Position numbers and translations under genes: made by a program. Below the pieces are notes generated by a model, which was given only the letters and a program-made list of their open reading frames with translations, made no database searches and was not told where the DNA came from. A stretch of DNA of 64,000 nucleotides from a virus. Below, piece by piece: positions 2,449 to 49,365 of the stretch. Each line of letters begins with the position of its first letter. The stretch's first letter is position 1. The stretch is taken from the UHGV virus genome UHGV-0176771; one strand, given 5' to 3'.

Positions 2449-5400
2449 TTAGAAAACTGCTCTTGCGAGTTCTTTATCTTCATTAAAAAAGGAACAAGTG
2501 AAACTTGCCCCGCCAAATACATCTTCGTTTGTAATATGCAAACCTTTTGTTCCGTTTGCATGTGCCATATTCCAATAATGATCACCATCAGAGTCTGGAG
2601 ATTGCCTCGTCCATATAAAATGCGTTTCATCGTACATATCTGTTACATTGCTCTGACCAAGATATAACGTTGGTGAGAGAGTGGTGTTTATCATACCTGG
2701 TCTAAAAACAACTCCGTTTGATGAATATATACTCATAGTATATGGTGTAGAAACTTTAATTCCGTCAATCTGCGTCTGCATATTTGAAAACTGTTTTTCA
2801 ATAGTTGTGAACGATGCATTGATTCCTTCACCGTTTACAACAACATCAGATACATGAATTTTCCCATCTGCATCTTGTTCTACAGCTTGAAAAGCCAGTT
2901 TATCCTTTGCAATTGTATTATTTGCGATCATATCGTTTTTAATTAAACCATCTTCGATTGCAGAATCTTTAATACCTGTAGAATCTATCAGAACACCTTT
3001 TCCAGTTTCGTCATATAAACAAAATGTGAAATTATCATTATTATCTCTTCCTATTTGAATACGTACAACGTTATTTTTATCTTTAAATTGCATTGTGTTT
3101 TCTACAATAGAAATGCCACCATCATCTGATCCAATCTGAAATTGGTCTGTTGATATTTTACTCGCTTTCAACATATCAACCGTAATACGAGCTGCAATCA
3201 ACTCACTAATGACCGCTTCATCAATCACAACATTCTGTGCTGTAAGTTTGATAATATGTCCAAGTTCAGCAGACACGTTTCCTGAAATCAAATTGTCAAT
3301 ATTTGCAACATAAGCAGCTAACTTTTTGAAATCACCAGATTGAGCAACAATCTGTCCAGCAGAAATAAGTTCCGCCTGTAAGTACTGGAAGAAACCATTT
3401 TCTGCATGAATGTTGATACACTTGATCATTTCTGCTTCAAGCGTTCCCGGAGTAATATAATCACCGCCACCACCACCGATGATACTTCCGCCAGAACCAT
3501 TTACGATATTCTGTACTTTATTTGTAAAAGCAGAAGACTGTAACAGTTTCTGTAAAATCTCATAAATGTTATCATCTGTGATTTGCAGATTTCCTACATA
3601 ATTGTTTCTGGCTCCGCCACCTCCAAGATTTGATCCTGTCCCAAGAATTGAGATAAAATCATTTCTTTTAGACCTTGATTTGATCATATTTGAAAATGTA
3701 ATAGTAAAATTGTTGTCAAATAGAAATGGGTTATAAGAAATATTCATCACACGTAATTTTACAAAATAATCATCTCTGATTCCGAGCCAAATAAAATTCC
3801 CGAAATCTAAAGTTCTTGCATGTAATTCTGTTCCAGATGCAGAAATTAAATTGTCTGTATCAGTTGAATATATGACTTGTGGAACAGAAGAGGCTTCTAA
3901 TTCCTCTAACGCAATACGGCATAGTTCCTGTTGTACAGTTACAATATCCCTAAGTGAATCCTGTGTACTTATAAAAATGTTTTCATTTGTGTATGTCGTA
4001 GGATTAGTGATGTGATAAAGTTCTGCCAGTTCCTCTTTGGTAAAACCACCTAATTCATTGTCAGCCCATGTTTCTAATGCCATGTCTTGACCAAGAGCAG
4101 TACGTTTCTTGCCAAGTTCTTTCTGTTTTTCTTCCTCTACCTTTGCCTCTTCTCTACGTTTCTTTAATGCTGCAGCACAAGAATCTGCATTTTTCTCGTC
4201 AAGTTGATATGCGTTCTTTTCATAAATTTCATGTTTTCCTTTAAACCCATCTTCTGTTAAAGGTGGATATTTTTCTGGATCTTCTTTTGAAAGTTCTTGA
4301 TATCTTTCCCACGTTAAGTCATAGTGACTTTTCTGCAACAACTTAACTTGATCCTGATATGCAGTTAATTTTACTTCCAGTTCATTGATTCCATAATATT
4401 CCCATGTTGTTTCATAATCTTCGATAAAATCCATTTCACCTTCAGACGTTGGTAATTTTCGATTATCGAATTCAATTTGAATATTAGGGAGAATTGTATC
4501 CACGATTTGATGATAGATATTTGCGTCTGGAGATGCATTAAGAGCATCGATATCAAATTTCCCGTCCTCATCTACATATATTTTTTCGTAACCAAGTTTC
4601 TGTGCTTCGTATTCTTTTTTCAGAGCAGTTAGTGCTTCATCTGATAATTTATGCCAGTTACTTGGATCACAGTCTCCGGTAGGAATTCGAATATAAATCT
4701 CAGTGATTTTATCTTGTAATTCATTCCATTCTTTTGACATCTTTGTATAATCAATTCTTGCCTGTACACAAAAATCAAACCATGCTTTATATTTTTTAAT
4801 CGTAGAATCGGAAAGATATTTATTATTTAGCCAGAACCGATCAAGATAAAATAAATTATTATTTCCGCCATTTACCTGTTCAATTCCTAAATCGTTTGCG
4901 CCGGATACACGATATTTAGTATAAATGTGTTCATCATCTACTGATACATCAGCAGAATTCTGGACATTACGATATCCGATTGTAATGTTTGTTTCTTTCC
5001 CAAAATTTTCTACACGATAAAAGTTCACAACAAGATTCTTAAAGTCAAATTCTACAATACAGTTAAAAAACTTTTCAAAATCTTGCGTTAAAAATGTATA
5101 CGTATCTTTATAGTCAACATCAAAAGTTCCGATTTCATCTTTTAGATAAACCAGCTTCTTTTTAATTTCTCCATTTTCAATTGTTTCGTATTCTTTTGGG
5201 ATATTGTCGATATGACCGATTTTCCATCCAGGAACTTTTTCAATTAAGATGTTTACAAGACTAAGTTGAGGTGTTAGCTCATTGTAAAATTTGATCTGTT
5301 CTTTTGCAAATTCTACACCATCAACTTCTTCCACATTACCTTCAACCAGCATTTCAAGAGAATCTGTAGTTCCGCAATTCACTTTCCAACCATCAAGAGG

Positions 5401-7947: not shown

Positions 7948-10900
7948 TTAAAATGATCTGTGTACACCAGCTCTTTTGGCTTCTTTGGTAAATTCCTTTG
8001 TGACTCCTTCAATTACTTTCTTCATGCCAGGATAGGTTTCCTTGTCAATACTTCCTTGAACTTCTATCATCTTGTCATAGTAATTATTTGTTACATTAGG
8101 TCTTTCACCAAGGCTGTTTGCAATGTTCAGTGAACTATAAATATCATCTTTGTGTTCACCAAGATCCATAATGTTCTTTGACAGTCTTGCATTTACAACA
8201 GCATCACCATAAGTAATTGTCGTAGCTGTTCCTGTCAATGCACCACGCCTAACCATCATTTCAGGATTGTTTCCTTCATTGATACGAACAATTTCTGAAC
8301 CATTTACAAATTTCTTTGTTCCAGACGCATAACCTCTTAACTGGTCAAGACTTACCCAACCAAGGTCACGCTCTCCGAAACGAGGTGTTCTACTAATATG
8401 ATATTTCTTCTGTGCCCAATTAGCATTATTAACACTGGTAATATATACTTCCTGACCACGCATTTCATTTCCAGCAGGGGACTGACCGTCAGAAGAGTAG
8501 TAGTAATCTCCACTTGCGAATATTACTTTGTCTCCAACATTTGGTACTCCGTCTCCGCCACCATTATTACTCGGTGGTGGTGTAGTTGGTTTTGGTGGTT
8601 CTGGTTTTGGTGTGACAGTTACTGCACAACTATTTGTTGAAGTAGCTCCTCCACCATCTGTTGCAATTGCACTAATGGTAGTGCTACCTGCTTTGACAGC
8701 ATGAACAGTTCCATTTGCAACTGTAGCAACATTTGGATTTGATGACACCCACTGCAAGCTTTTATTTTTTGCATCATTTGGTCTGATTGTTGCCGAAACT
8801 GTGCCTGTAGAACCTTCCTGTATAGAAAGTGTCCCCGGACTTAATGTAATTTCTGCAACTGGTCTGTTTGATAAGTCTGGATTCTTACTGATATCACCTT
8901 GAATCTGGTCATTCTTATCCTGTGTTGTTCCGTTCTGAATCTGACCGGTATTCACATCCGTCCAATCATCCGGTCTATAATTAGGAGCATTAGTCATACT
9001 ATTGTCAACTTGATCTTGTGCTCCATTACTTGTACCAAGATTTCCAAGATTATTGGATAAATCTTTATTCGGTACAAATCCTGTACTGTTAATGATTTGC
9101 TGAATTTTGTCATAAGCCTGTTGGTAGTTTCCAACAATATTTCCAAGCATTTGAGATATTACTTGTTCCTGCTTTTCAGCATTTCGAGTAACATCATATA
9201 ATGTTTCCTCCAGCTGCTTATCGAGATCCTCACTCAAACCGTCCAGACCATTCTGGTGAACATCATATTCATGGTCATCACGGGTGTCTTGCATTTCTTC
9301 TTCGGCATCTCTAAGTTGTGCTTTTAACCTCTTTAATTCAGCCTGTGCACTCGCATTATTCGTGCCTTCGAGTGCAGCAATCTGAGCTTTCAATGTATTC
9401 ACATCTCTAGCCTGTTTACGCAGAGTCTTATTGTAATCAGCATTTTTCTTTTTGATATCCAATAATTCCTTCTGCTTATCAATCGATTTTTGAGCAACTT
9501 CATTCTCTTGCTCAAGCATCTTTGTATACAGATCAACAATAGAATCTTTGTAGTCTTCTACAATATTAACAGAGCTTGAAATCTGATTGAGAAATTCTTT
9601 TTGCTGCTCCTTATATTCACTTGTTGAGATATTCCCGTTCTTTAAATCCTCATCAAGCTTCTTCAATGCCTCTTGATAATTCTTAATCTGTTGTTTCGCA
9701 GCATTCATACCCTGACTAATCAAAGCCAAATTTGCAATACCATCAAGTGTTAATCCACCATTTTTCCCAACAAAAGCATCACTATTTAAAAGTCCTCTTA
9801 AATCATCTGTCTGGTCAATCAGATCACCTAATGCCTCCTGTCCATCAAAGAACGGTTGCCATCTTACTTCCCAGATTTTATTTTTGAGGTCTTCAATATT
9901 ATTCATTGCATCAAAGATAGCGTCATCGAGCTTTTCCATCTCTTCCGCATATTCATTATATTTGTCAGAACCGACATCATATTTTGCCTGATCTCGTAAT
10001 AGCTCTTGTCTCTTATTATAATTCGCTTGAATCTGTGCATTGGCATTATCAAGTTGCGCCTGTAAATCTTTTTCAGATATTTGTTCGCCTTTTGACTCTG
10101 TAAGGTCTGTGTTGTTCTCAAGACGTTTTGCAGTTCTGTCTAATTCATCGATTGCCTGTTGCAATTTCAATAAATCAAGTTCTCTTAGTTGGTCTTGCAA
10201 TTCGATCAATGTTGTTTCAGCTTCAGCAGCTTCTTGTCTGAATCCGTTTAATGCAGCTTGAGCTTCAAACCATTCCGTTGAGTATTCAGCCATATACCCA
10301 TTTGCCATGAGTTTATTGATTTCATCTTGATATGATTTAATCTGTGACTGTAATTTACCTGCAACATCCTGTTGATTTTTAATAGATTCTTGCAGAGAGC
10401 CATACATATTGTCGGAATATGCAGATTCTCCTTTTGCAGCCGCTAGTTCACGTAATGCTTCCTGATAATCTACAGCAGAGGACTCAATTCCAGTCATCAT
10501 ATCGATGTAATCTTCAATATTATCCAATGCTGTCTGCGCCAGTTCACTCTGTTTGTTTAAGAGGTCATCGTACTGTTTATTACAGTCTACGAGCTTATCA
10601 TAATAAGACTGTAGCTCACTGATTATTTTTTGAGTATCATCATCGTATTTTGAAATATCCATAGACCCGTTCTGAATCTGATGGACGATAAGTGGGTTTA
10701 TTCCACTCTGTCGCACAATAGAATCAAAATGACTTTGATAAGTCCCAATTGCTTGCTGAGTCCTATTCAGTAGTTCACTGTTCTTAGACATTGCCTCATA
10801 CAGTTTCTGTTGCTTATCTGGGAGGTGTGCGATACGCTCCATTTGACTCATCAATAAATCATACTGTGATTCTAGCCGTTGAAATAACACCTCAACCCAG

Positions 10901-13900
10901 TCTGTATATCCAGATACTGCTTCTGATAATTTCTCTGCCGCTTCGGATGTATCAGATGCTGCTCTTGAAAGGTTATTTGATGCGGAGTTAAGATTGTTGG
11001 AAGTAGAAGAGTTCCCAATTCCAGAAATTCCTGATTGACTTCCAGATCCTCCAATGCCAAAACTTCCGCCACCACTTCCATTTGCAAAAGCAGTTCCAGA
11101 AGCGTAAGCTCCACCCATGAAAACTTTGGCACGAGAATTTACATATCCTTTAGAAAGTAGATCTCGTGTCTGAAGGTGGTTGAAGATTATGTCTCCACGT
11201 TTTAGATTTACGAATTCTGCACCATTGTCTCCAATGGTTGTGAATTTTCCTCCGCGTACAAGAAGTTCTGTTCCTAGTTCACCAACCAAAGCACGCTCAT
11301 CTTTTTTTACACCCCAATCACCTTGGTCAAATGCGTGACCAGATTTAGGATTTACAGTTCCATCTGCATGAGCAGTTCCGTTAAAACGCGGCATCATCAG
11401 TCTGCCATTTCCTACGTTTGTACCAGTACTTACTGTTTCAACTCTATGTGTATAAATATAAGTATGTGCAGCACTTCCGTCTAAACCTGACAGCATTCCA
11501 CTTACTCCAGAAATTACCGGTGTAGCATGATCGCTAGCCTCGATATTTGTATTTGATTCATCAGGGATACTTTCGACACTTCCAGTTACATTTTCTGCCG
11601 TTAATGAAGCAGAAGCATCTGTTGCAGTAATAACAGCTGTCTTTTGTTCCGGTGTTAAAGAATTCCAAAGACCAATCACATATGTAGCTTGATCTTGTGC
11701 AGTCATTGATGTAAATTTCGGATTTGCGCTCAAACCGTTCCATAAAGTAATAATGCCTGTTGCATGGTCTTCTCCGATTAATGGAACAGATTTTTGTATG
11801 AGTTCTTTCTTATTAATATCATCAATTACAGGAGTAGCGTTATCTACGGCATCTAAATGTACAGGTACGCCAGGAAGGTTAAGACCGTGTATTGCCTTTT
11901 CCATTACGAACTGAAGATCATTATCTACTTCATAAGCAATTGTTCCATCCGCAGTTATAACAGGCTTCAATGCTTTTTCTACACCATCTATCTCAGCAGT
12001 ATAAGTAACTGTTCCGTCTTCATCCTTAACGGCTTTAACTACAGACTCAACATTAGAAACATCTGCATTGTATTTAATAGTCTGATTTGCTTGAAGATTA
12101 TTTAATGCTGTGTTCATTTCTTCTGTAGAATTGAATGTTTTAACTTCAATTTCCGGTGAAAGATTCTTTATATCTTCGAGCACTTCTTCTTTGTTTTTTA
12201 CTTTTAGTTCTGCATCAAGTTCAATGCCGTTTTCTTGTGCTAATTGACGAATTTGATCTTCCATCAAGCTAACCACTTCGTCTGTGTTTTCCCCATAGGC
12301 ATTTTCTCTGAGAATCCTATCACGTTCTTCTTTTAAACTACTAATTGCTGTTTTTGCCTGTTCAACTTGTTTTGCATAATCATCTGCAGATTTTGTTATG
12401 AGTTGACCAAGATTAGCTTGGGTTTGCTGTAAGTCAGATTCAAGTCCTTTAATCTTTTCGCGCTGCTGATCGATTGCTGTACTGTCTGCCCCAGTTGCTT
12501 CGAGCCTCGCCAATTCCGCTTTCGCATTCACGAGTTCTGTGCTTAAGTCAGATACACGTTTTGCACCCTGTTCAACAGAACCGACAAAGTTATTACTGAA
12601 GCCATAATCTTCAAGACGACCAAACATGTCCATAAAAAATTCAAAACCTACGCCCATATTTGTCGCAGCTTGCTCTAAATCTTCTATATTATATGTCCAT
12701 TGCTCTGTTCCGTCAGCAACTGTCTTAAATGCCATTCCTTTGCTTTCAAGATCAGTTAAGAAATTATGTACGCCAGATGCATCTTCTGTCAGATAGCGAG
12801 CAGCCTTAGCGTAATTTTCAGCAAAGTTTACAGCATCTTCTGCACCAGTAGGAGAGAAGTAGGCGGCTCTCTTTTTAAAGTCGTCGGTTCCGATCAACCC
12901 TTTATCAAACATTTCTTTTGCTTGCTCAAGATATGATTTTGCCTGAACATAGTCATCACCGGCATTTTTAGTTTCGTCAGCAGCACTAATTGCTTCGAAA
13001 TTTTTATTTGCTTCTAAGTTAATACCAGTCGAAGCAAGTGCTTTTGCATTTTGGATCTCAGATTTTAGTTGGTTAAATGTGCCCGTAAATTTATCATTTA
13101 CAACTAAGTCATAACCTTTTTCCAAATCTTCTAATGACAAATCTTTTGCTGCATCGCCATACAGTTCTGTTAGCTTTGCTAGTTGATCTTCAGACTCTTC
13201 AATTACTTTGTCAAAACCAAGAGATTTTTTGAACGCCTTTTGTGCTTTGCTATCATTAGGAAATGCTTTTTCAAGAGCTGTGTCAATTGTCGATATGTAT
13301 TCTCCAACATTCAACATAGATGTATCCAGAGTCAACATATCTTTAATTGCCTTTTGTCCTTCTGGTTTCATATCTGCCATAGGCTGAATAATTTCGCCAT
13401 ACATGAAAGACATAAAGTCACCACCATAGTCTTTAGCCACGGTTTCGTAATCAATATTATCAACATTACCTAAGAATGCATCTTGAATTGATTTATCTAA
13501 TTTTGTAAAAGTATCTGAAGTTTGCAGATACTGTCCGAGTGACTCTCCCATTTTAGACCATTGTTCTTCGATAAGAAGTTTTGTTGCAGCTATACTTTTT
13601 TCTGCTTCTGCATTTTCAACAGTCATTGAATTTATGGCTTCACTTTTATATTTTGACAGTGTATTTTTTATCTCATTTGCAACATTTTTATCGAATCCTG
13701 ATGTTGATATTGTCACATTGCCTGCATCATCAATAGCCTCTTGCATTGCAACGCCATTATCACTTAAAATTTTTGCGATTTCTCTCTGAGCTTTCGCCCT
13801 ATTTTCTCCATATGATTTTAAGCCTAATGTTATATCACCAGAAGAAGATAATTCGTCAGCATCAATTTCCATATCTGCCATCGCTTTATCATTTTTGTCA

Positions 13901-14868
13901 ATGGTATTTTGTAGAGTTTTAATTTTGTCTTCATATTCCTCGATTTGAGCAACTGTGCCTTCGTAATTATCCTGCAGACCTTCTCCAATCTTAACATTAG
14001 CAGATAGCATCTGCGCGTCATATAAACTCTTCAGACTTGCTGCAGCAGAATCTGCATTGCTACCAAGATTAAGAATAGCATTTCCTTGTGCGTCATAACC
14101 TTCTACGAGAGATGGGAACTGTGACGCTAACTGATTACTAATATCCAGATACTGTTGATATTCCTCAGAAGACAGTCCTTTGTTTTTATTCGTTACAGTA
14201 TCTACATTCTTGCTTAATTCACTGTATTTCTTTGCGACATTCTCTATCGCATCACCTGTCGTTTCAATATCATCTGCATTATCTGCAAATGACTGACCAA
14301 GTGTGTCCAGAGTATTCTTGCCTTTAGAGAACTCAGCAAATGTCTCATCGATAGAGCTTTTCGCTTCTTTTCCTTTGGCAATCATTTTTTCTTGACGATG
14401 AATGTAGTCATCAATCATAGTAATAACGCCTTGAATCGCTACACCGGCAAGCATACCGATACCTGCGTTTAAAAGACTTGAACCGATCATTCCTCCTACG
14501 TTTTTAAGAGTAGAAGTTACTTTACCAAATTTTGATGTGGATTTAGAAGCTGACTCGATATGCGTATCCATATCTTTAATGTTCTTCTTCCCAGAATCAA
14601 CGTCACCTAAAAATGTAATAAGTTCTTTGTCTGCGTATCCCATAGATTTTGCCCAATCAACCCATTTCTCAGGTTGATTATCGCCTAATCCTGAAATAAC
14701 TTTATTTGCTTTTAAAAACTCTTCACTTATTTGTGGAGTTTTATTTTTGTATGCATCAAATAAGCTGAACCCAGTATCCTTATCATAGTTGAAAACCGTA
14801 TAGTTTTGATGTACACTTATATTAAATACTTGCAATATTTTATATAAGGAAGAAAAATATGAGTTCAA
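7948..14868 (-). CDS. Tail tape measure protein, giant (2306 aa): N-terminal hydrophobic segment, long coiled coils, C-terminal Ig-like (BIG2-type) and SH3b-like domains
   Basis: Position immediately upstream of Dit/Tal. Coiled-coil-rich. [44 protein letters not shown] Ig-like segment; [13 protein letters not shown]3b-like. Annotated start is a TTG overlapping a divergent gene, so the true start is uncertain. Confidence 0.65.
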
Positions 14869-15332
14869 AAATTAAATTCTGCGAAAAATGTTCGCAAACA
14901 AAAAAGAATATGGAGTCAGTAAATACAAATTATTCAGATGTTGAATCGCTTATTGAATTTGGCAAAGGAATGATAATCGGATTTTCAGATGATGTAAAAC
15001 GTTGTCCATACTGCGATAACGATCTGGAAACCATCAACATGTCCACTGACGATTTCCTAACCATCCGTGATGCGTCCAATTGTAATCGAGATTTACTATT
15101 TGCAATGATAAAACTGCATGATGAAGATCCAATTGGGTATGAATTAAAAATGGCTCAATTCCGCGAGATAGCAGAACGTAAAAAAGCAGAAGATTCCAAA
15201 CCACGTTGTCCAAAATGCGGATCGACTTCAATCGCAACTGTCAACAAAGGTTATTCACTTCTCACTGGTTTCCTTGGCTCCGGTAAGCCTATGAATGTAT
15301 GCCAGAGCTGTGGACATAAGTGGAAGATATAA
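14859..15332 (+). CDS. Zn-ribbon protein (two CxxC pairs at the N-terminus, CPKCG...CQSCGH at the C-terminus), 157 aa
   Basis: RBS AAGGAAG upstream of ATG 14859. Cys motifs read directly. First gene of a plus-strand accessory island. Confidence 0.55.
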
Positions 15333-15357
15333 GAATGTGGCAGGGGAGAACAGAAGT

Positions 15358-15588
15358 TTATTTGTCGATTACTCTCTTCAATAATTTCTCATGCTCTCTA
15401 CAAATAGTATCAAGATCAAATTCTGGCGAAACATCATCTGGAAGTTTTTCTACTGTTTTGTCAGAATTAACTTGATATACATCACCGTTCCAGACAAACT
15501 GATTTTCGGAAATGTACAGCCAATCAGATTCAACGGAGTGTTTTGGATACGACAGAATAGTCATCGACTCGTCTAATTTTTGTTGCAT
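15358..15588 (-). CDS. Hypothetical small protein (76 aa), weak support
   Basis: ORF between the two plus-strand island genes; no clear RBS. Confidence 0.2.
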   Translation of the reverse strand: MQQKLDESMTILSYPKHSVESDWLYISENQFVWNGDVYQVNSDKTVEKLPDDVSPEFDLDTICREHEKLLKRVIDK

Positions 15589-15695
15589 TTTTATGTCATC
15601 AATTTTTAATTTGATTTTATATAAATCTATAACTAATTGTTTTTCGTCATCTGTTAACTTAATAATTTTAACTCACCACCTTTGGAGGAAATTTT

Positions 15696-16457
15696 ATGAA
15701 AGTATTAGATATTGTTCCATTATACTTAAAATATCAAAAAGAATACCCAAGAAATGATTATCCTGAACTATCAGTAGATAACCTTGTGTATGTTCATGAT
15801 GTTGATTTTTTCTTTCAATTTAATTCATCTAAATTATATGATAATCAATATGAATTAAAAATTAACATGGAAGCGTTTGCATTAAATGATACATATTTGA
15901 AAAGCATATTGTATCACGAATTCACGCATATATATGATTCTCTTATGTTCAAAAACAAAACAATAGATGAGTATAAAAGTATTTTGTCATATTACTCGGA
16001 AATACATTCATCGTACATCGAAATGAAAAGTAGGATAAAAGAAATATCGAATTCTATATATGTACAGGATGAAAAGATCGCAATACCAATGGATATGCAC
16101 ATACAGCAAAAATATTTAAATATTAAAAAAGAATGGTCAAATTATATTGAGTATAATCCAGAAACCATCACAGATAAAATAAAACGGCTCTGTTATTTTG
16201 TTGGACATTATAAATATCTGAAAGATAATTACGATATACCTGAATTTGAAATTGTATCACCATATTCCGAAGAAATATACAACATTATAAATGATTATTC
16301 TAATGAAGTGTATGATTTACAAGAACATTTTGATAAAATCATTCAAAAGTCAAAACGTCATAAAGACAGCCAAAATTTTGAGAAACTGCAATCAATTTTG
16401 GACGAAGATGCAATAAATCAAAATGCATTATTAAAATTATTCATAAATAAGGAATAA
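15696..16457 (+). CDS. HExxH-motif protein (putative Zn metallopeptidase, ImmA/IrrE-like by motif only), 253 aa
   Basis: GGAGG RBS before ATG. HEFTHIYD motif in the sequence. Very AT-rich codon usage, unlike the neighbouring structural genes. Confidence 0.5.
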   Translation: MKVLDIVPLYLKYQKEYPRNDYPELSVDNLVYVHDVDFFFQFNSSKLYDNQYELKINMEAFALNDTYLKSILYHEFTHIYDSLMFKNKTIDEYKSILSYYSEIHSSYIEMKSRIKEISNSIYVQDEKIAIPMDMHIQQKYLNIKKEWSNYIEYNPETITDKIKRLCYFVGHYKYLKDNYDIPEFEIVSPYSEEIYNIINDYSNEVYDLQEHFDKIIQKSKRHKDSQNFEKLQSILDEDAINQNALLKLFINKE

Positions 16458-16582
16458 TTGTTAAATGCGGATCTACGTCAATCACAGCAGGACAGAAAGG
16501 ATATTCGTTCTGGACTGGATTCTTAGGAAGTAATAAAACAGTCAATAGATGCAGTAACTGTGGTCATACATGGAAACCGTGA
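16452..16582 (+). pseudogene. Remnant of a second copy of the Zn-ribbon gene C-terminus (no start codon)
   Basis: Frame after the TAA translates to CGSTSITAGQKGYSFWTGFLGSNKTVNRCSNCGHTWKP*. This parallels [41 protein letters not shown] of the 14859..15332 product. Confidence 0.5.
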
Positions 16583-16614
16583 TGGGAGAGTAGTAGTTAG
16601 AAATAGAGGTGTTT

Positions 16615-16914
16615 CTACAACATTTCTGTTTCTAACTCACGTATCCTACACATTAGGTCATCACATGATTTTTGCTGCTTTTTCAATGTGTATTCACATG
16701 GATAATCTGTTTTGTGAAGACCAAAATTATTTTCGATTTTTTCATTAAAATCTTTATGCATTTGGTTCAATATCTTTCGATTGTTTTTGTTTAATGAATA
16801 TAAGAATATAATCATTCTACATTTTGTAAAGTGTAAGAATGTATATATTTTGTAATGCAGTAAGTGTAAATTTTTCAATTTTAGGTTCACCACCTTTACC
16901 AGTAATTTAAACAT
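16615..16914 (-). CDS. Hypothetical small protein
   Basis: ORF only; N-terminal part looks low-complexity. Confidence 0.25.
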   Translation of the reverse strand: MFKLLVKVVNLKLKNLHLLHYKIYTFLHFTKCRMIIFLYSLNKNNRKILNQMHKDFNEKIENNFGLHKTDYPCEYTLKKQQKSCDDLMCRIRELETEML

Positions 16915-17108
16915 ACATCATCTTGTATATTAAAATACTTCCAGTATGGAATATAATCAATAGTGGAACCAATATGGATGGTATCTTGTATTTTTGATGA
17001 CTCTTCTTCACTTAATTTATAGATTTCAAATATATCATCAAGTTCTAGATTTTTTGTAACACTGTTTTGCATGTGGAACTCACCTTCTTTTACAATATTT
17101 ATATGCAC
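16896..17108 (-). CDS. Hypothetical small protein (70 aa)
   Basis: ORF only. Confidence 0.25.
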   Translation of the reverse strand: MHINIVKEGEFHMQNSVTKNLELDDIFEIYKLSEEESSKIQDTIHIGSTIDYIPYWKYFNIQDDVCLNYW

Positions 17109-17502
17109 AAAAAAGAGACATCAATTAAGATGCCTCTTGATTTAAAATTATTTCACTTATGAGGGCGCAATGCCTCATCTCTCTGATAAGAATAAAACTT
17201 ATCTCTCTATCGTTTTACGACAAATCAGAGCAGTAAATATTACTATTTTTATCAAAATAAATCTCATAGTTTGGGATTATGCCATCCCAATTTTAAACAG
17301 TCATAAACCCACGAACAAATACACATCATATAAGGCAGGTAAAATAATATCATTTGTTACACTGTTGTTTGTCCATTTTTATTTAATAAAACACAGTCAA
17401 ATGTTGTTTTATCTCTAGCAATTTCACAATTACATATCAATTCATCAAGAATTAAATTATTTTCAATATTATCATTTTTCATCTCGTTTTTTTCAATTAA
17501 AA

Positions 17503-17967
17503 TCATTTCCAATTTATATTCCACCTTTTTAAAGTATCAATTGTTACATTCGGATTTAGATATTTCATAATTTCTAACCCTTTATATTTTACTTCTGTTT
17601 CGTCATGAATGTTCCAAAAATGATGTACAATTTCTTCTATATATGCATAAGTTATAATTAAAAAATTATTTGCCTTCCTTAATCTATTCATATGATAAAT
17701 GATTAATGAAAATGTAGATGCACAACATTTTTCATCTTCTTCGTCAATTATTAATTCGTCACCGCCTAAAAAAACAACACTTGCCTTTTTGATACTTTCT
17801 TTGGTTATTCCATCTTTTTTCATGACAACTGCTGCGTATTTTAACACAAGTGCAAAAGCTTTCAATTCATCTATTGACATTTCACAAGTTGATATTAATT
17901 CTATTTTGTCTTCAAATATATCTGGTTTTACAATATCGTGTATTGGAACAACATTTCTTACTCCCAT
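17503..17967 (-). CDS. Hypothetical protein (154 aa)
   Basis: ORF in the accessory island. Confidence 0.45.
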   Translation of the reverse strand: MGVRNVVPIHDIVKPDIFEDKIELISTCEMSIDELKAFALVLKYAAVVMKKDGITKESIKKASVVFLGGDELIIDEEDEKCCASTFSLIIYHMNRLRKANNFLIITYAYIEEIVHHFWNIHDETEVKYKGLEIMKYLNPNVTIDTLKRWNINWK

Positions 17968-18100
17968 ATTATTTTTCTCCTATTATTCATCATTAGTATC
18001 ATTTCCATTATATACCAATAATGAATAGAAGAGTAGTCTGAACATATGCTTCTATAAAATCAAAACATTAGCCAATATAATAGAAGAGTAGGGTTATTCC

Positions 18101-18655
18101 CTACTCTTTTATATCATCTAATTTCAGCACATACAATTCACATTTTTCGTTATAAGAATCACCAACTGCATGTTGAGTTTCTTCATTTGCCCTTTGAAAT
18201 CCAAGAGATTTATAGAATCTGATACCCTGATCATTGTCTGCGTCAACAAAAACAATTATACCATATATAGCAATTATTTTTGAAACAGTAATGATTTTTG
18301 GAACAATATAGTCTGTAAATAGAACTGTTCCGACACCACTACCTTGAATACCATATTCTACAGCAATACGTGAAATTTCTACAACAGGCAATGCTGTGTA
18401 TTCGTCAATGCATTCATCATATGTATGTATTGCATTGGCTTTGACTGTATAAAAAGCTAATATACTTGTCTTATCTTTGTCTAACAAAATATATGTATGA
18501 CCCTGTTTATCTTCCGCATAGTCAAAGGAATTATCTGATAAAAAAGTATTTAATGGGTCATCTGCTCCACAACAAAAATCTCCAACAAGCGTAAAATGTG
18601 TATTGGATTCTCTTGTTAAAAGCTCTTCAACACATTGATTCGAAAGATCGGTCAT
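18101..18655 (-). CDS. GNAT-family N-acetyltransferase (184 aa)
   Basis: QGSGVG acetyl-CoA-binding motif and FYKSLGF segment. ATGA start/stop overlap with the upstream 77-aa gene. Confidence 0.65.
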   Translation of the reverse strand: MTDLSNQCVEELLTRESNTHFTLVGDFCCGADDPLNTFLSDNSFDYAEDKQGHTYILLDKDKTSILAFYTVKANAIHTYDECIDEYTALPVVEISRIAVEYGIQGSGVGTVLFTDYIVPKIITVSKIIAIYGIIVFVDADNDQGIRFYKSLGFQRANEETQHAVGDSYNEKCELYVLKLDDIKE

Positions 18656-18885
18656 CTGTTCTTTTCTCTCAAGAATTTTGCAATAGCAGAACTTGCATTT
18701 TCCCTATCTGTGGTAGTCGCTGGAATAAATTTACTTTTCTTAAAATCATCTACGATTTTAGTAGCTGCCTTCCCTTTTAATAATGGAACAATAGCCTTTG
18801 AAACAGCCATATGTTTCCCCTCCTTTGTATGTATGGATACTTTTTTACCTAACTTCATATAATCACCCCTTAGTATTTGAAGCAA
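18652..18885 (-). CDS. Small protein translationally coupled to the GNAT gene (possible antitoxin-like partner)
   Basis: 4-nt overlap with the GNAT start. Small basic protein. Confidence 0.4.
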   Translation of the reverse strand: MLQILRGDYMKLGKKVSIHTKEGKHMAVSKAIVPLLKGKAATKIVDDFKKSKFIPATTTDRENASSAIAKFLREKNR

Positions 18886-19748
18886 TTATACATTAAAAAA
18901 ATTGAACAAAATGTCGAAATATAACGTGAGAAATAAATTAGACTATTTTTTGTGTATCTTATTATACATTTTTTATTAAATTTGTTCAACCGCTAGATAT
19001 AGTGCGGGAAAATAAAAAACACACTAATTATATAAATTTTTCCTATATATAGTTGTTTTCTCTATATTTAAAATATCTCTTGTGTTTTTGAAAGGAAAAA
19101 AATATTCTATATTATTTGTTTCCACAACATTACAAAAGGACAGGATATAATTCCCTGTCCTTACATCGTGGTGTTACGAGCTATATTATTTTTAACTCAT
19201 GTATTATTATACACTCTTTTTGTATTAAGTCAAGTAGAATGTAAACAATTTGTGTCTATTTTATCTCTATTAGAAAACGACGAGAGATGCGCCGAGTGGA
19301 ATGCCACTATAAATATCCTGTCCTGTTTTTGCAAGTCAGCAACAGGTTGTGTAGTTTGCGTCAATAGAGCAGTAGTAAATATTGTCGTATCTCATATTGA
19401 CTACCCTGGGCTTTCCCCAGGTACGGACTGTATGTTGTGTACCATATGATACAATTACGCCTGTATCACGTCATGTCTTGTCAGTCTCTCGCGCCCTATA
19501 TATGGAACTACACTTCCAGTTTTCGCTATAGTGCGTCGGGACTACCATTTTCACATTAAATGCTTATTCCTTCACGAACGTATTTCTTCTATAATAAATA
19601 CGCTTTTATTGCATCGATCCGGCACCTATATAAATAGGCTTACGGCTTCCCCCGATATTCGACAATTTAGAAAATATATTTTCAAGGATGGTCATATTAC
19701 ATTACGATATATAATATGAACACTCTCTACGTTAATTGCATGGCATTA

Positions 19749-21977
19749 TTATGCAACCTTATAGAAAGGGGCGAATTCAACTATGTTATCATTACCCAAC
19801 CCTTTTTTACTTAGAACGGTTCCAGAGAACAATCCTAATAAAGAAGAAAAGCTTCCAAATTTATTTAAAATTCCATCCAAAACACCAAGAAATGATGTTC
19901 CAGAATCAACAAGAAATCCAAATACATCTGAACTTAATAATGAAGTAGACAAGGACTGGAATTTGTTTTCAAAACCTTCAATCTTACCAGAAATAGATTC
20001 TTGATAAGCTGCATATTTCTCCATTGATTCTCCAGACGCATTGTTGGCAATGTCAATATATTTTTCAACATTTCCCCACTGCTCCATAAGAACCATAAAT
20101 TCATTCATATGATGAGTTCCGGCAAAAGCCTGAGCAACTGCTCTTTTCTGGACACCTGAGAACGTTTTCCATCCTTCCGCTGTTTCTGAAAGAACTAAAT
20201 CAAAATCTTTGAACTCATCTTGCGTATCTCTAAGTGAAATACCAACTCCTCTTAAAACAGTTTCTACATTACTAAGATCCTCACCAGTTTCATAATCTTT
20301 AAGTCGTGATAGTTTAATATTACCCATACGAGAAAAGATTGCGTTAAGAGATGTTCCAACAGAAGCCATTCCTTCCTGAGTTGTCTCTCCAATTACGGCT
20401 GCATAGCTTAAAAGATTTTGAGTTTCAACACCTGCAGTTTTAGCATTTGCAGCCACTTCATTAAAGGCAGTCGCTAATCCTCCAACATCCGTAGCACTTG
20501 CCATATCAATTGCACTAATTTGATCAACAAATCCCATAACTTGACTTTCAGCCATGTTATATGATTTCATTGCAGCAGTAATAGTCTTTGTCGCGTCTTC
20601 TGAAGACAAATCGCCTATTTTCGAAAGGATTATGGAATCCTCTGTCAATTTTGAGGCTTCCTGAATTGCCTTACCTTGTTTTAGCCATTCAGTAGATGAT
20701 TTTGCAATATCAACTCCAGTTGCTTTCAGTTTGTCTCCGAGTTCATAATATGTGTCCATCATCTTATATGCTTCGTCATTTGAAAGAGATGTAGCCATTC
20801 TCAAATCTGTCATAGCATCGTTTACAGTGATGACATTAGAAACCATTTTTCTTCCGCCATCCATAAAAACATCTTGAATTACGCCGTAAGTAGTAGCGAA
20901 TTGTCCAATCTGTTTAAATCCTCTTGTTATTTCATCAATAAAACTTTTCCCATTTAACCCTTTTAATGCAATTTCAGATTTTGCACTTGCAAATTGTTTT
21001 CTAACATTCTCGCCAGATGCAGCTCTTCTTGATAAGTCATTTAACGCATCTTCATACTCTTTTGTTAATCGAGTATTTTCTTTCATATACTTCTGAATAT
21101 CGTTGCTTAAAATTGAAGACTCTAAAGAATTTAATGTTCCTTTCACACTATGCTTTAATTCTGACATAGAATTTTCGAAGCGTTCTGCAGCTAAATTTGC
21201 TTTATTAAGGTTATCAGCCAGTTCATCTGTATCAAAAACAAAAGAATCATTGCTGTCATAATGTTTACGCAATTTATCCATCGTATTAGCGTATTCATCA
21301 ATCATAGATCGTAGACTTTTAATTTTACTTTCATCAACATCATAGGAGTCTTTAAATGAATTTAATTCAGATTTCATTTTTGCAGTGTTAGATTGCACTT
21401 TATACGAATCCAAATCATGTTGAGTCTTTTCTGATAATTTCAGTAATCTTGTAAATTCTTTTTGCTCGTTCTGTACAACCTTAATCTGATTCCTGTATTT
21501 TTCTAAATCACTTGTAAGCTTATTAAAATTAATTTCCATAATGGAATCATTTGGAGCCAATTTCACATTATTAATATCTTTATTGATGTCGGATAATAAC
21601 TTTCGAGCCTTTTCCGCGGATTTTGTCGTAAGAGATTCAAACTTTTTAAAATCTGCATTTGCCTTTGAAACATCTGCATCAATCTTTAAAGTAGAAACAC
21701 TTCGTTTCGCTTTTTCAATATCAGATAATCCTTTTTTAATTCCGGATGTATCCATATCTGCTTTAACACTGATTTTATTATTCTTCTCAATATTCTTAAA
21801 TACACCGTTGATCTTATTCAGATTCTTCATTCCCTGAACATCAAAATCAACTTTAATCTGTTTATCGTTTTTTACTAAATTATCTAATTTTTTCTGGGCA
21901 GCATCTAGTTCACTTGTATCAACATTCGTACTAACCCGTACTTCATATTCGCTCATTTTTAAAATCACTCCTCTCAA
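19749..21977 (-). CDS. Tape-measure-like protein with PhageMin_Tail-type core (742 aa); N-terminal coiled coil, C-terminal Gly-rich hydrophobic segment
   Basis: Segment GLATAFNEVAANAKTAGVETQNLLSYAAVIGETTQEGMASVGTSLNAIFSRMG... fits the conserved TMP core pattern. C-terminus FGFLVDSGTSFLGVLDGILNKFGSFSSLLGLFSG is typical of mid-TMP hydrophobic regions. Confidence 0.6.
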   Translation of the reverse strand: MRGVILKMSEYEVRVSTNVDTSELDAAQKKLDNLVKNDKQIKVDFDVQGMKNLNKINGVFKNIEKNNKISVKADMDTSGIKKGLSDIEKAKRSVSTLKIDADVSKANADFKKFESLTTKSAEKARKLLSDINKDINNVKLAPNDSIMEINFNKLTSDLEKYRNQIKVVQNEQKEFTRLLKLSEKTQHDLDSYKVQSNTAKMKSELNSFKDSYDVDESKIKSLRSMIDEYANTMDKLRKHYDSNDSFVFDTDELADNLNKANLAAERFENSMSELKHSVKGTLNSLESSILSNDIQKYMKENTRLTKEYEDALNDLSRRAASGENVRKQFASAKSEIALKGLNGKSFIDEITRGFKQIGQFATTYGVIQDVFMDGGRKMVSNVITVNDAMTDLRMATSLSNDEAYKMMDTYYELGDKLKATGVDIAKSSTEWLKQGKAIQEASKLTEDSIILSKIGDLSSEDATKTITAAMKSYNMAESQVMGFVDQISAIDMASATDVGGLATAFNEVAANAKTAGVETQNLLSYAAVIGETTQEGMASVGTSLNAIFSRMGNIKLSRLKDYETGEDLSNVETVLRGVGISLRDTQDEFKDFDLVLSETAEGWKTFSGVQKRAVAQAFAGTHHMNEFMVLMEQWGNVEKYIDIANNASGESMEKYAAYQESISGKIEGFENKFQSLSTSLLSSDVFGFLVDSGTSFLGVLDGILNKFGSFSSLLGLFSGTVLSKKGLGNDNIVEFAPFYKVA

Positions 21978-38800: not shown

Positions 38801-38871
38801 AGCTCAGACCCAGATTTGAACTGGGAACAATTGATTACAAGTCAATCGTTTTTCCATTAAACTATCCGAGC
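38801..38871 (-). tRNA. tRNA-Thr (anticodon UGU)
   Basis: Manual cloverleaf: acceptor GCTCGGA/TCTGAGC (one G-U); D-arm GTTT/AAAC; anticodon stem ATTGA/TCAAT with loop CTTGTAA; T-arm CCCAG-TTCAAAT-CTGGG. No encoded CCA. Confidence 0.7.
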
Positions 38872-48564: not shown

Positions 48565-48637
48565 TAAGGTGAAACAGCCCGTAGTTGATTCGAACAACTG
48601 AAATGCAGGAGTCAAAGTCCTGTGCCTTACCGCTTGG
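48565..48637 (-). tRNA. tRNA-Gln (anticodon UUG)
   Basis: Acceptor AGCCCGT/ACGGGCT perfect 7 bp. Anticodon arm CAGGA-CTTTGAC-TCCTG. T-arm AGTTG-TTCGAAT-CAACT. Confidence 0.6.
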
Positions 48638-49365
48638 CGAACGGGCTAAAATACTCCTAAGATGTTAGCAACAGCACTACCAGAACAGCAATGCTATTAC
48701 TAACTGAAAAGGAGATTAGAAATCGTCAAGTGCGCGCATAAGCACTTGATTATAAATACAAATGGAACTTCTTCCTACTCAAACATATTGTCATAATGTT
48801 CTGCCACTACTTACAAAGGGCTGAGAATAAGGGAGCTACCCTTAGACTTCCTTTGCATCTGGAAACAGTAATTGTAGTCTCGACTGGTTACGAGAAACTT
48901 TCACCCAGGTCATTCAGCAATTAACCATTTTTTATACTTGTTCTATTATCTATCTGTAATATGTATTCTTTTTCTTTTCTCACGTCACTTTGGGCTACTC
49001 GTACATTCGACAGATCTTATACTGGGATTTCTCCCGATCAACGACGCAACTGACTTATTTGGATTTCCGCTACTTATCTCTCTGTAACATTCCACCGATA
49101 CAGGCATCACGATTATTACTCCACTGGAGTCGTCTATTATGTCAGCGATCTGGCAATTGCGTTTTACGGCAATATATTATTGTACATATATTTAGTTTTG
49201 ACAGTTTCCGTCTTTCTGTTTATGATTCACATCATTCCAGAAACTGCAGTATAAAACTATCGCATTATACCGTAACTCACTATTCATATATTCTCAGCAT
49301 GGTGACAAACCAATCTGCACTGAGTTATTTGTATTTATAAGCAAGTGCTTATATTATCTACATAT

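Follow-up and report, generated by a model that had tools for sequence, protein, structure and literature searches.

The start-less Zn-ribbon fragment that follows an HExxH gene in the virus genome UHGV-0176771, of which a stretch of 64,000 nucleotides (the window) was analysed, is probably the scar of a presence/absence polymorphism, in which a 1.25-kb accessory cassette occupies a modular Zn-ribbon gene. Comparison with related loci makes it likely that this fragment (the remnant) arose by recombination and is not a frameshift product. The features concerned are as follows.

14859–15332, plus strand: ORF1, a modular Zn-ribbon protein of 157 aa, with an ATG start and AAGGAAG 7 nt upstream.
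15213–15332, plus strand: left repeat, the type-1 C-terminal ribbon module that completes ORF1; it forms the 5' part of the segment missing from locus L101.
15228–16462, no strand: segment present in the window and missing from L101, as delimited by blastn against L101 and a three-way junction alignment.
15358–15588, minus strand: 76-aa gene of the cassette core, divergent from the HExxH gene and beside it in all 12 close loci.
15696–16457, plus strand: HExxH protein of 253 aa, with GGAGGA 7 nt upstream and a TAA stop at 16455–16457.
16463–16582, plus strand: right repeat, a start-less C-terminal ribbon of allele type 2 without its first Cys; in L101 it is continuous with the N-terminal part of ORF1.
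16595–16637, no strand: hairpin with a 19-bp stem (inverted repeat; RNA fold -33.4 kcal/mol, z = -6.3).

A preliminary description of this DNA had noted two plus-strand genes with ribosome-binding sites of their own and a marked AT-richness, and both observations hold: ORF1 and the HExxH gene are each preceded by the sites listed above, and the GC content is 0.24–0.26 along the HExxH gene vs 0.34–0.43 in the flanking tape-measure gene. The accessory island as a whole interrupts the tape-measure gene. The tail genes are encoded on the other strand than ORF1 and the HExxH gene, and a tail-chaperone frameshift of the G/GT type was rejected for this reason. Promoter-like sites in the region are no commoner than in shuffled sequence. 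Megablast of positions 14000–20000 against 50,697 phage records gave no match, and full-text literature searches found no description of the ribbon/HExxH pair or of the island.

The start-less paralogue of the ribbon C-terminus, also reported earlier, is confirmed. The -1 frame past the HExxH TAA encodes GIIVKCGSTSITAGQKGYSFWTGFLGSNKTVNRCSNCGHTWKP followed by a stop codon (16451–16582) and contains no ATG, GTG or TTG; peptides from its part at 16463–16579 would include GYSFWTGFLGSNK. The remnant shares 25 of 38 residues with ORF1 residues 119–156 (E = 3e-17 in BLASTP; E = 1.7e-24 with the ribbon-family HMM), a similarity far above chance. When the two ribbons are aligned at the nucleotide level, 76 of 120 bases agree (63%); of the 44 that differ, 21 are third codon positions. 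Since 63% identity is too low for a repeat finder, the duplication was missed by that method. The homology begins exactly at AAATGCGGATC, at positions 15213 and 16463, inside the first knuckle, after its first Cys codon and before its second, and the remnant consequently lacks the first Cys. According to the ribbon-family HMM, the 64-kb window has no ribbon copies besides the ORF1 C-terminus and this fragment. Four more cassette-bearing sequences (L062, L063, L064, and L102) share the junction of the window, of which L062 is 99% identical to the window and may be the same sequence rather than an independent one. The HExxH/remnant junction is no assembly artefact.

The cassette-free allele is found in L101. 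Window positions 14821–15227 correspond to L101 3317–3723 with 97% nucleotide identity, and positions 16463–16897 correspond to L101 3709–4143 with 82% identity, the two matches overlapping by 15 nt at AAATGYGGATC. L101 has a single ribbon gene, in which an ORF1-type N-terminal part runs directly into a remnant-type ribbon and the downstream flank. Therefore, the window carries an extra segment, which counted from repeat to repeat (15213–16462) is 1250 bp long, with an 11-nt direct repeat, AAATGCGGATC, at 15213–15223 and 16463–16473. It consists of a replacement ribbon end, the conserved 76-aa minus-strand gene, and the HExxH gene. Because the incoming segment carries its own C-terminal ribbon, the gene remains complete, with the resident C-terminus moved out of it. 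The preliminary description had proposed that the HExxH gene was inserted into a second copy of the ribbon gene; the insertion stands in this modified form, while the second gene is dispensed with, as the single gene of L101 suffices. The hairpin at 16595–16637 falls in the stretch 3' of the intact ribbon gene in L101, and is probably the resident ribbon gene's own terminator, the transcription units on either side of it being convergent; having no T-run, it was missed by a simple terminator scan. In L061 and L101 the place of the HExxH gene behind the ribbon gene is taken by a trypsin-like protease.

A second pair of alleles is formed by L069 and L085. Relative to L085, L069 has an extra segment of about 1160 bp, in which a spacer separates a type-2 ribbon end from a further HExxH gene; a type-3 ribbon is displaced by it, with a 13-nt overlap. 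Empty and filled alleles occur in two independent lineages.

It appears that the cassette has moved between phages, because window positions 15338/15358–16476 are 81–93% identical to L001–L012, and the tape-measure flanks of these loci have no alignable nucleotide similarity to window positions 13000–14868. The upstream ribbon genes of L001–L012 are also of another type than that of the window. No recombinase was found in the 1.25-kb cassette, the 76-aa ORF and the HExxH protein matching no recombinase family in Pfam, NCBIfam, or PHROGs, and the transfer may be most simply explained by general recombination.

Across the clades, the junction TAATTGTTAAATG is constant and the sequence past it varies. 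It is joined to a type-2 ribbon in the window, L062–L064, and L102, and to a type-1 ribbon with a GGA to TGA nonsense codon in the closest clade (L005–L009, five samples; HExxH 91% identical), while in a third clade (L001–L004 and L010–L012) KCGST alone is left. The remnant, or at least the junction, is thus kept in relatives. The fragment of L005–L009 differs from the ORF1 ribbon of the window almost entirely at synonymous sites (10 of 11 scored differences). In the comparison of the window with L063, the remnants have a pS of 0.47, which is higher than the 0.225 for the adjoining HExxH genes; therefore, the remnants were not simply co-inherited with the cassette. The remnants in relatives would rather derive from different functional ribbon alleles.

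These observations also bear on an alternative in which no transfer takes place, namely that two complete tandem ribbon genes once flanked the HExxH gene, that the 5' two-thirds of the second was lost by illegitimate deletion, and that the L101-type allele arose later by recombination between the ribbon ends. Arrays of full ribbon and HExxH genes do exist (L001, and L048 with three ribbons and two HExxH genes), and the longest repeat identity at the junction makes a deletion crossover plausible there. The site of the junction varies among HExxH lineages (first knuckle, loop, linker, or middle domain), which points to several independent illegitimate events and so fits this alternative. However, in the window clade, and again in lineage H3, the ribbon alleles attached to one and the same junction differ and were functional until recently, the cassettes are closely similar inside phages with unalignable flanks, and no locus retains a 5' part of a second ribbon gene between the HExxH stop and the fragment. 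We regard this tandem-gene alternative as unlikely.

Under the preferred reading of a cassette inside a single ribbon gene, the resident gene would originally have consisted of an N-domain, a helical middle, a linker, a type-2 C-ribbon, and a hairpin terminator, as in L101. The cassette would comprise a type-1 C-ribbon 3' end, a short UTR, the minus-strand 76-aa gene, and the HExxH gene with its ribosome-binding site and stop, and would sit in the C-terminal ribbon at its first CxxC knuckle. The incoming type-1 ribbon would complete the N-terminal part and leave ORF1 intact, and the resident type-2 ribbon, with neither start nor first Cys, would be pushed 3' of the HExxH stop, where it would go untranslated and persist by providing the HExxH gene with a 3' UTR and terminator region. 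Any phage or prophage with a ribbon gene could be the partner in an ordinary double crossover that transfers the cassette, and recombination between the two repeats could remove it again, while repeated gain would stack the units as N-R-H-R-H-R. We infer the direction of the event, gain or loss, and L101 and L085 could instead be secondary deletions between the repeats; the longest identical stretch between the left and right repeats lies exactly at the junction. General homologous recombination would be the presumed mover of the cassette.

The layout of ribbon, HExxH gene, and displaced ribbon recurs in many gut Firmicutes phages. A survey of 102 loci yielded 75 distinct ribbon-bearing frames, of which 39 are full genes; another 15 are distinct fragments that have no start and follow an HExxH stop directly. 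All three frames (0, +1, and -1) are represented among these fragments, and stops, frameshifts, or lost Cys residues occur in several. In HExxH lineage H3 the upstream ribbon is always of type 3, and the downstream ribbon is type-1-like or type 2. The loci of L005 and L001 type have an upstream ribbon of type 4, with a 59-aa minus-strand ORF between ribbon and cassette, and in this respect the link between the cassette and a replacement ribbon that travels with it is incomplete.

Fusions of HExxH protein and ribbon, suggested earlier as something to be sought in relatives, do exist: an HMM scan found in-frame HExxH-linker-ribbon proteins in 5 of 106 family proteins (P0183, P0184, P0186, P0212, and P0223). 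Some fragments may therefore be broken fusions and not displaced ends. The fusion proteins also lend some credit to the idea of a frameshift or fusion product, raised in the preliminary description; the window locus would then make a minor fusion of HExxH protein and remnant beside the 253-aa protein, be it by a -1 frameshift, by reinitiation at the stop, or by transcriptional slippage. In lineage H9 (L077 and L080) the frame overlap contains an A8 run (at position 4623 in L077), where a +1 shift would link the peptidase to a complete ribbon, and the window remnant has no internal stop. In the window, however, the frames overlap by just 7 nt (16451–16457, GGAATAA), with neither an X XXY YYZ motif nor a homopolymer, the -1 frame has a TAA two codons ahead of the HExxH stop, and of the four Cys ligands three would be present in the fusion. 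Moreover, the remnant bears the nonsense codon in five independent samples of the sister clade and a deletion in L001–L004 and L010–L012, and elsewhere the fragments are spread over three frames, several with lesions, a homopolymer being present in one lineage only. A fusion product at the window locus is therefore highly improbable.

The same lesions count against the view that the fragment is an independent gene for a mini Zn-ribbon peptide of about 40 aa, with a non-canonical start (ATA 16454 or ATT 16457) coupled to termination of HExxH translation. An AAGGA lies immediately upstream (16449–16453), genuine ATG mini-ribbon ORFs are found directly past the HExxH stop in L069 (4729) and L091 (3426), and gene callers place ORFs of 49–54 aa at the same spot in L002, L003, and L012. 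In contrast, the spacing from AAGGA to ATT is only 3 nt, there is no canonical start, the first Cys is missing, and L005–L009 have the nonsense codon. The called ORFs of L002 and L012 retain only KCGST and cross a terminator-like hairpin, and in the compared stretch they differ by four nonsynonymous and no synonymous changes. Such a gene has very little probability. The 49–54-aa ORFs that gene callers place after these HExxH genes are probably spurious, and the start-less ribbon fragments would be scars.

The remnant of the window accordingly reads best as a putative untranslated relic, which would now form the 3' UTR of the HExxH gene. Its low dN/dS would fit selection on a translated product as well, and is tentatively attributed to selection before displacement. 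The type-1 ribbon of the left repeat has 0 nonsynonymous and 7–9 synonymous differences from its relatives, which indicates purifying selection.

ORF1 begins with a CxxC...CxxC ribbon, followed by a conserved helical middle, a charged linker (residues 103–115), and the type-1 C-terminal ribbon. It has 424 homologues (E ≤ 1e-3), the best being 92–93% identical across 100% of the length, and is a full-length member of a modular family that shares the helical middle and a C-terminal CPxCGS...CxxCG(H/Y)xW ribbon. In the family alignment, N-domain types combine freely with C-ribbon alleles of types 1, 2, and 4, and chimeric C-ribbons are also present (P0076, and L090 3449–3595); the family is a mosaic made of exchangeable modules. 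The AF2 model of ORF1 (pLDDT 86) gives only generic Zn ribbons in Foldseek and no significant match to the PDB; all Pfam matches are under their family cutoffs, and a tblastn search of phage records gave a single weak match, in Clostridium phage Maintenon. PF26788 is present in some relatives in precomputed data. The Zn-ribbon protein is found without the peptidase in L059–L060. Neither ORF1 nor the HExxH protein is named by Pfam, NCBIfam, PHROGs, or PADLOC.

The earlier term 'metallopeptidase-like' for the HExxH protein is borne out. HEFTH occupies residues 74–78, the family pattern being HEFTHxxD ... YSExHA, and H74, E75, H78, D81, and E102 are invariant in 70 sequences of a family with 99 cluster representatives (E ≤ 1e-3). 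In the AF2 model (pLDDT 93), behind a small sheet, HEFTH lies within a helix (65–84) and E102 of YSExHA in the next helix (100–113). By E-value alone, irrespective of curated cutoffs, weak library matches were obtained among the 70 members to M76 (7), SprT-like (5), and PhageMetallopep (2) families. The protein thus appears to belong to an unnamed gluzincin-like family with invariant HExxH..D..E, and is predicted to be an active Zn peptidase. The gene (pN/pS 0.15–0.30) is under purifying selection. The window protein itself has no match in Pfam, NCBIfam, or PHROG, a PDB sequence-profile search with the family gave spurious matches only, and tblastn found none in phage records. Foldseek against the PDB returned abylysin alone, which is not significant (E = 0.4, probability 0.85), and in BFVD two gut-virome peptidases match (E ~ 1e-6). 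Neither of the two outcomes that would have told against the pair, an HExxH protein of a housekeeping family and an unconserved remnant, was seen; the protein matches no housekeeping family.

The protein resembles the minimal gluzincins of the SprT-like/Wss1 and M76 (Atp23) groups in its HExxH helix, in the invariant Glu 24 residues on, and in the preceding small beta-sheet; some family members match SprT-like (best E = 1.4e-6) and M76, and Foldseek finds SprT-like viral proteins. It differs in that the window protein reaches no family's curated cutoff, in having an extra helical C-terminal half of about 130 residues without a PDB match, and in the invariant Asp 3 residues past the second His and the family-specific YSExHA. 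A likeness to ImmA/IrrE-type modules, put forward earlier, is limited to a small HExxH protein in a mobile element with a small partner gene adjoining. In contrast to ImmA/IrrE (Peptidase_M78, COG2856) with Xre-type repressors, the partner here is a Zn-ribbon protein without HTH that is able to occur without the peptidase. Peptidase_M78 (PF06114, E ≤ 0.01) was found in 0 of 70 family members, and no HTH in ORF1 or the 76-aa ORF (Pfam and NCBIfam). The suggestion of an abortive-infection pair likewise finds no support, as no PADLOC model matches ORF1, the HExxH protein, or the 76-aa ORF at E ≤ 0.01.

The homologues of the 76-aa gene are 69–91 aa long, and an upstream ATG reads ATA in the window. 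The gene (pN/pS 0.24 vs L005) is likewise under purifying selection, which marks both genes of the cassette as functional; its family is narrow (14 proteins at ≥ 66% identity), and the protein has no match in Pfam, NCBIfam, or PADLOC.

Elements that bring the replacement 3' end of their target are well known, such as e14 and phage 21 in the icd gene of E. coli, and the many phages and islands in tRNA and tmRNA genes. As in such replacement, the duplicated target 3' end flanks the cassette (15213–15332 and 16463–16582) and ORF1 is intact: the inserted DNA provides a new 3' end, the original one is moved to the far side as a start-less, decaying duplicate, and a short identical core (11 nt here) is present at both junctions. 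The differences are that the 1.25-kb cassette has no integrase or att machinery, within it or adjacent, that the repeats are 120 nt long, only 63% identical, and alleles of a protein module, and that the target belongs to the accessory genes of a phage. Phage morons and mosaic exchange of modules at conserved boundaries are known from lambdoid and T4-type phages, including shuffling mediated by promoters and stem-loops. The cassette is comparable: small, low in GC, and self-contained for expression, it occupies a hypervariable spot of a structural module, is shared by otherwise divergent phages, and is exchanged at a short conserved sequence. Here, however, the conserved linker is a coding Zn-ribbon knuckle and not an intergenic signal, a displaced gene end is left, and repeated events lead to N-R-H-R-H-R arrays.

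The peptidase and ribbon proteins may be functionally coupled, as we infer, or their linkage may be only recombinational. A speculative extension, to which we give little weight, is that the C-terminal ribbon is the cognate partner of the peptidase (substrate tag, inhibitor, or targeting module), in matched pairs of an undescribed phage conflict system. It is prompted by the linkage of lineage H3 to type-3 upstream ribbons, by the fusion proteins, and by the trypsin-like protease of L061 and L101. If true, it would mean superinfection exclusion or counter-defence, with units stacked newest-first inside one ribbon gene, so that the order of an array would record the order of acquisition, and some peptidases would carry the ribbon themselves, by in-frame fusion or possibly by slippage on the A8 run.

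The locus would provide a sequence-level example of accessory genes that are able to move between phages without a dedicated recombinase. A conserved protein-coding module would serve as both homology arms, and the cassette would repair the gene that it interrupts and leave a diagnostic displaced end. Two abundant, uncharacterised families of gut phages, the Zn-ribbon proteins with more than 400 members and the gluzincin-like proteins with about 100 clusters at 50% identity, are genetically coupled. They share a hypervariable island whose position in the tail module is fixed, so that a possible interaction between protease and ribbon could be tested directly.

The arrangement set out in the preliminary description, namely a modular Zn-ribbon gene (ORF1), a predicted metallopeptidase gene (the HExxH gene) and a start-less paralogue of the C-terminal ribbon, is present throughout as described, as its ORFs, RBSs and BLAST match show. 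A small minus-strand gene lies between the first two:

14859-15332, plus strand: ORF1, Zn-ribbon protein of 157 aa, good RBS
15358-15588, minus strand: 76-aa gene, divergent from the HExxH gene (69-91 aa in relatives)
15696-16457, plus strand: HExxH ORF, 253 aa, HEFTH at residues 74-78, GGAGGA upstream
after the HExxH TAA stop to 16582, plus strand: start-less ribbon fragment, read in the -1 frame as GIIVKCGSTSITAGQKGYSFWTGFLGSNKTVNRCSNCGHTWKP and a stop

The frame carrying the fragment (to 16582) holds no ATG, GTG or TTG. Aligned with ORF1 residues 119-156, the fragment is identical at 25 of 38 positions (E = 3e-17), and in the nucleotide alignment 76 of 120 bases are identical, with the differences mostly at third codon positions. 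The two copies become homologous abruptly at AAATGCGGATC (15213 and 16463). This point falls after the first and before the second Cys codon of the first knuckle, and the first zinc ligand is therefore missing from the fragment. No further ribbon copy occurs in the 64-kb window. The GC content of the HExxH gene is 24-26%, against 34-43% for the neighbouring tail gene. The 76-aa ORF has 91 aa in some relatives, and the upstream ATG used there has become ATA at window 15589-15640 (read on the minus strand); this makes the annotated start (15588, weak RBS) uncertain.

An empty site is found in locus L101, whose ORF1 homologue (P0011) has a type-2 ribbon. Window positions 14821-15227 align with L101 3317-3723 (97% identity) and 16463-16897 with L101 3709-4143 (82%), the two alignments overlapping by 15 nt at AAATGYGGATC. 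Thus the L101 ribbon gene is uninterrupted, running from the N-terminal part of ORF1 through a remnant-type ribbon into the same downstream flank; this flank includes a strong hairpin in the window (16595-16637, z = -6.3). Compared with L101, the window carries 1250 bp more, a segment whose boundaries are marked by an 11-nt direct repeat; in it are a type-1 ribbon end (now completing ORF1), a short UTR and the genes for the 76-aa and HExxH proteins. In a second such pair, L069 has a segment of about 1160 bp that L085 lacks (overlap 13 nt); a further HExxH gene lies in it, with a spacer and a type-2 ribbon end, and the type-3 ribbon is displaced. The L101 arrangement may be either ancestral or the product of a secondary deletion.

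The cassette is a presence/absence polymorphism inside a modular gene. Its incoming replacement C-terminus keeps the ribbon gene intact, while the displaced resident C-terminus decays. The idea of an insertion, proposed as one of the HExxH gene into a second ribbon copy, was essentially right, given the empty site in L101, with the refinement that no second ribbon gene is needed: the cassette brings its own ribbon end and displaces the resident one.

Only eight close relatives of the HExxH protein are found, all at least 73% identical, and their contigs were fetched for comparison. All keep a block consisting of the HExxH gene and the small divergent minus-strand gene (69-91 aa), which is 81-93% identical to window 15358-16476; their flanking tape-measure DNA gives no nucleotide-level alignment to the window. 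The junction after the HExxH stop is constant, and the sequence beyond it occurs in three states. The first, an open type-2 fragment, is seen in the window and four other sequences (L062-64, L102). The second, in five samples with HExxH 91% identical, is a type-1 fragment with GGA changed to TGA, otherwise identical to the ORF1 ribbon of the window at 107 of 120 positions (10 of 11 scored differences synonymous). In the third (seven loci, 73-75%), just AAATGTGGATCAAC (KCGST) is left, followed by unrelated sequence with a terminator-like hairpin. Between the window and L063, synonymous divergence is higher in the remnants (0.47) than in the adjacent HExxH genes (0.225), which fits a derivation of the remnants from different resident genes.

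To survey the architecture, 102 loci taken from genomes, viral contigs and metagenomes were translated in six frames and scanned with HMMs of the ribbon family, the C-terminal ribbon alone and the HExxH family. There are 75 distinct ribbon-bearing open frames, 39 of them full genes, and 15 distinct start-less fragments directly 3' of an HExxH stop. The fragments follow widely diverged HExxH lineages (down to ~20-30% identity), lie in frames 0, +1 and -1 relative to the HExxH gene, and start variously in the linker, first knuckle, loop or even helical middle; several have stops, frameshifts or lost Cys. In lineage H3, a type-3 ribbon is always ~220 nt upstream and the downstream fragment is type-1-like or type-2. 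The ribbon family is itself mosaic, with several N-domain types joined to C-ribbon alleles 1, 2 and 4, and with chimeric ribbons. One ribbon gene (L050 1050-1340) is broken at an A8 run, the N-terminal part (..CVECWNRKKPQKK) being in one frame and the linker with a complete C-ribbon in the next; a frameshift in a pseudogene, a sequencing error or phase variation could account for this.

A frameshift or fusion product, also proposed for the window locus, is not supported there: the frames overlap by only 7 nt with no slippery sequence, the product would be short of one Cys ligand, and the sister clade carries a nonsense codon in five samples. Elsewhere only one lineage, H9, has a homopolymer (A8) in the frame overlap. 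In its members L077 and L080, with the run at 4623 and the HExxH stop at 4652-4654, the last 12 codons of the peptidase gene also form part of the ribbon frame, and a +1 shift at the run would fuse a complete ribbon to the peptidase; the fragments of L080 and L082 are themselves frameshifted farther along. The search for fusions in relatives was positive: an HMM scan of all 106 HExxH-family proteins gave five in-frame HExxH-linker-ribbon fusions from at least three lineages (P0183, P0184, P0186, P0212 and P0223; 283-311 aa), each with the peptidase, a charged linker and a complete C-terminal Zn-ribbon. Therefore, the peptidase can carry this ribbon, and some start-less fragments elsewhere may be broken fusions.

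The HExxH gene is under purifying selection (pN/pS 0.15-0.30). An exhaustive phmmer search gave 99 cluster representatives, mostly of 230-330 aa, and an alignment of 70 sequences shows no variation at H74, E75, H78, D81 or E102. In the AF2 model (pLDDT 93), the HExxH motif is part of helix 65-84, and the long helix that follows, after a small sheet, contains E102; this modelled layout is that of a zincin. No whole-protein match to a curated family or solved structure was found. Family members match SprT-like, M76 and PhageMetallopep weakly, and Foldseek gives two gut-virome peptidases (E~1e-6) and, at low significance, abylysin. Longer members (285-360 aa) are chromosomal, in Anaerobutyricum, Eubacterium and Lachnospiraceae genomes (L015-L058; for example, L015 3839-4708 in Anaerobutyricum hallii DSM 3353); their conserved neighbourhood has ORFs resembling, by eye, gamma-glutamyl kinase and phosphate reductase genes, and no ribbon gene is near them. 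The suggested likeness to ImmA/IrrE or abortive-infection pairs finds no support, as neither an ImmA/IrrE match in the HExxH family nor a PADLOC system was obtained. Our best guess, of low confidence, is a predicted Zn peptidase acting in phage-phage or phage-host conflict; ribbon proteins or the clade-specific 76-aa protein may be its targets or its regulators.

ORF1 has 424 homologues at E ≤ 1e-3, the few source-named ones being from Mediterraneibacter gnavus and a Candidatus Metalachnospira MAG. One, 92% identical, belongs to the lysogeny region of a different prophage, where no HExxH gene is present. The ORF1 model (pLDDT 86) matches generic Zn ribbons only. In two close relatives, L061 (5682-6338) and L101 (4156-4812), the ribbon gene is followed by a gene for a trypsin-like serine protease (Trypsin_2, 218 aa) in the position of the window's HExxH cassette, a different protease class with the same ribbon family.

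The ORF1 and HExxH genes belong to a low-GC island of 4.9 kb (~14.8-19.7 kb), which lies within a phage structural module on the minus strand:

7948-14868, minus strand: 2306-aa ORF with Ig-like domain, one side of the island
19749-21977, minus strand: 742-aa ORF with PhageMin_Tail domain, other side
35967-37718: terminase large subunit

The 742-aa and 2306-aa ORFs match consecutive parts (positions 556-945 and 1024-2416) of a single tape-measure profile, phrog_4211, so the tape-measure gene appears to be split by this accessory island. Relatives (L001, L005, L010, L101) keep this split, and in them too the halves are separated by a variable island. The 742-aa part resembles TMPs from Bacillus phages of ~80-134 kb, and related TMPs of Bacillus phages are contiguous. 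Related IMG/VR contigs are of ~155-166 kb; the window also has tRNA-Thr(TGT) (38801-38871) and tRNA-Gln(TTG) (48574-48648), both on the minus strand.

Island content varies widely among relatives, and includes a PemK-like toxin, DUF723/CapR-like genes, a Y1 transposase (IS200/IS605-type, L006 9938-10261), DUF6338 membrane proteins, a trypsin-like protease, and a GNAT acetyltransferase with a small upstream ORF. The GNAT gene of the window (18101-18655, minus strand; 184 aa; Acetyltransf_1 of Pfam, phrog_1758) overlaps by 4 nt an upstream 77-aa ORF (18652-18885, minus strand) that has no family match; the pair, also in L101, resembles GNAT toxin/antitoxin pairs in layout. In these ribbon/HExxH islands, DUF6338-like proteins (160-200 aa) are repeatedly encoded on the opposite strand:

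L012 7227-7754 and L061 8535-9122, opposite strand: weak DUF6338 match, in these two only
L013 1347-1832, L048 6662-7231 and L050 4693-5292, opposite strand: assigned by eye from length, position and C-terminal sequence

No recombinase is encoded in the cassette, and ribbon-gene sequence lies to its left and right. For its transfer, an ordinary double crossover with any phage that carries a ribbon gene would be enough; the exchange on the left would fall in the conserved middle, linker or ribbon, and that on the right in the remnant. Repeat-to-repeat recombination would remove it, and repeated gain would build N-R-H-R-H-R stacks such as those of L069, L077 and L091. Integration with replacement of the target 3' end is known for e14 and phage 21 in icd and for tRNA-targeting elements. 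It is the closest analogue in logic, except that the cassette is without an integrase. The moron and mosaic-exchange picture of phage evolution also fits, the exchange point here being a coding module. The scar itself is ordinary biology; it is of note that the architecture recurs, that two unnamed families are coupled, and that the island lies within what appears to be a split tape-measure gene.
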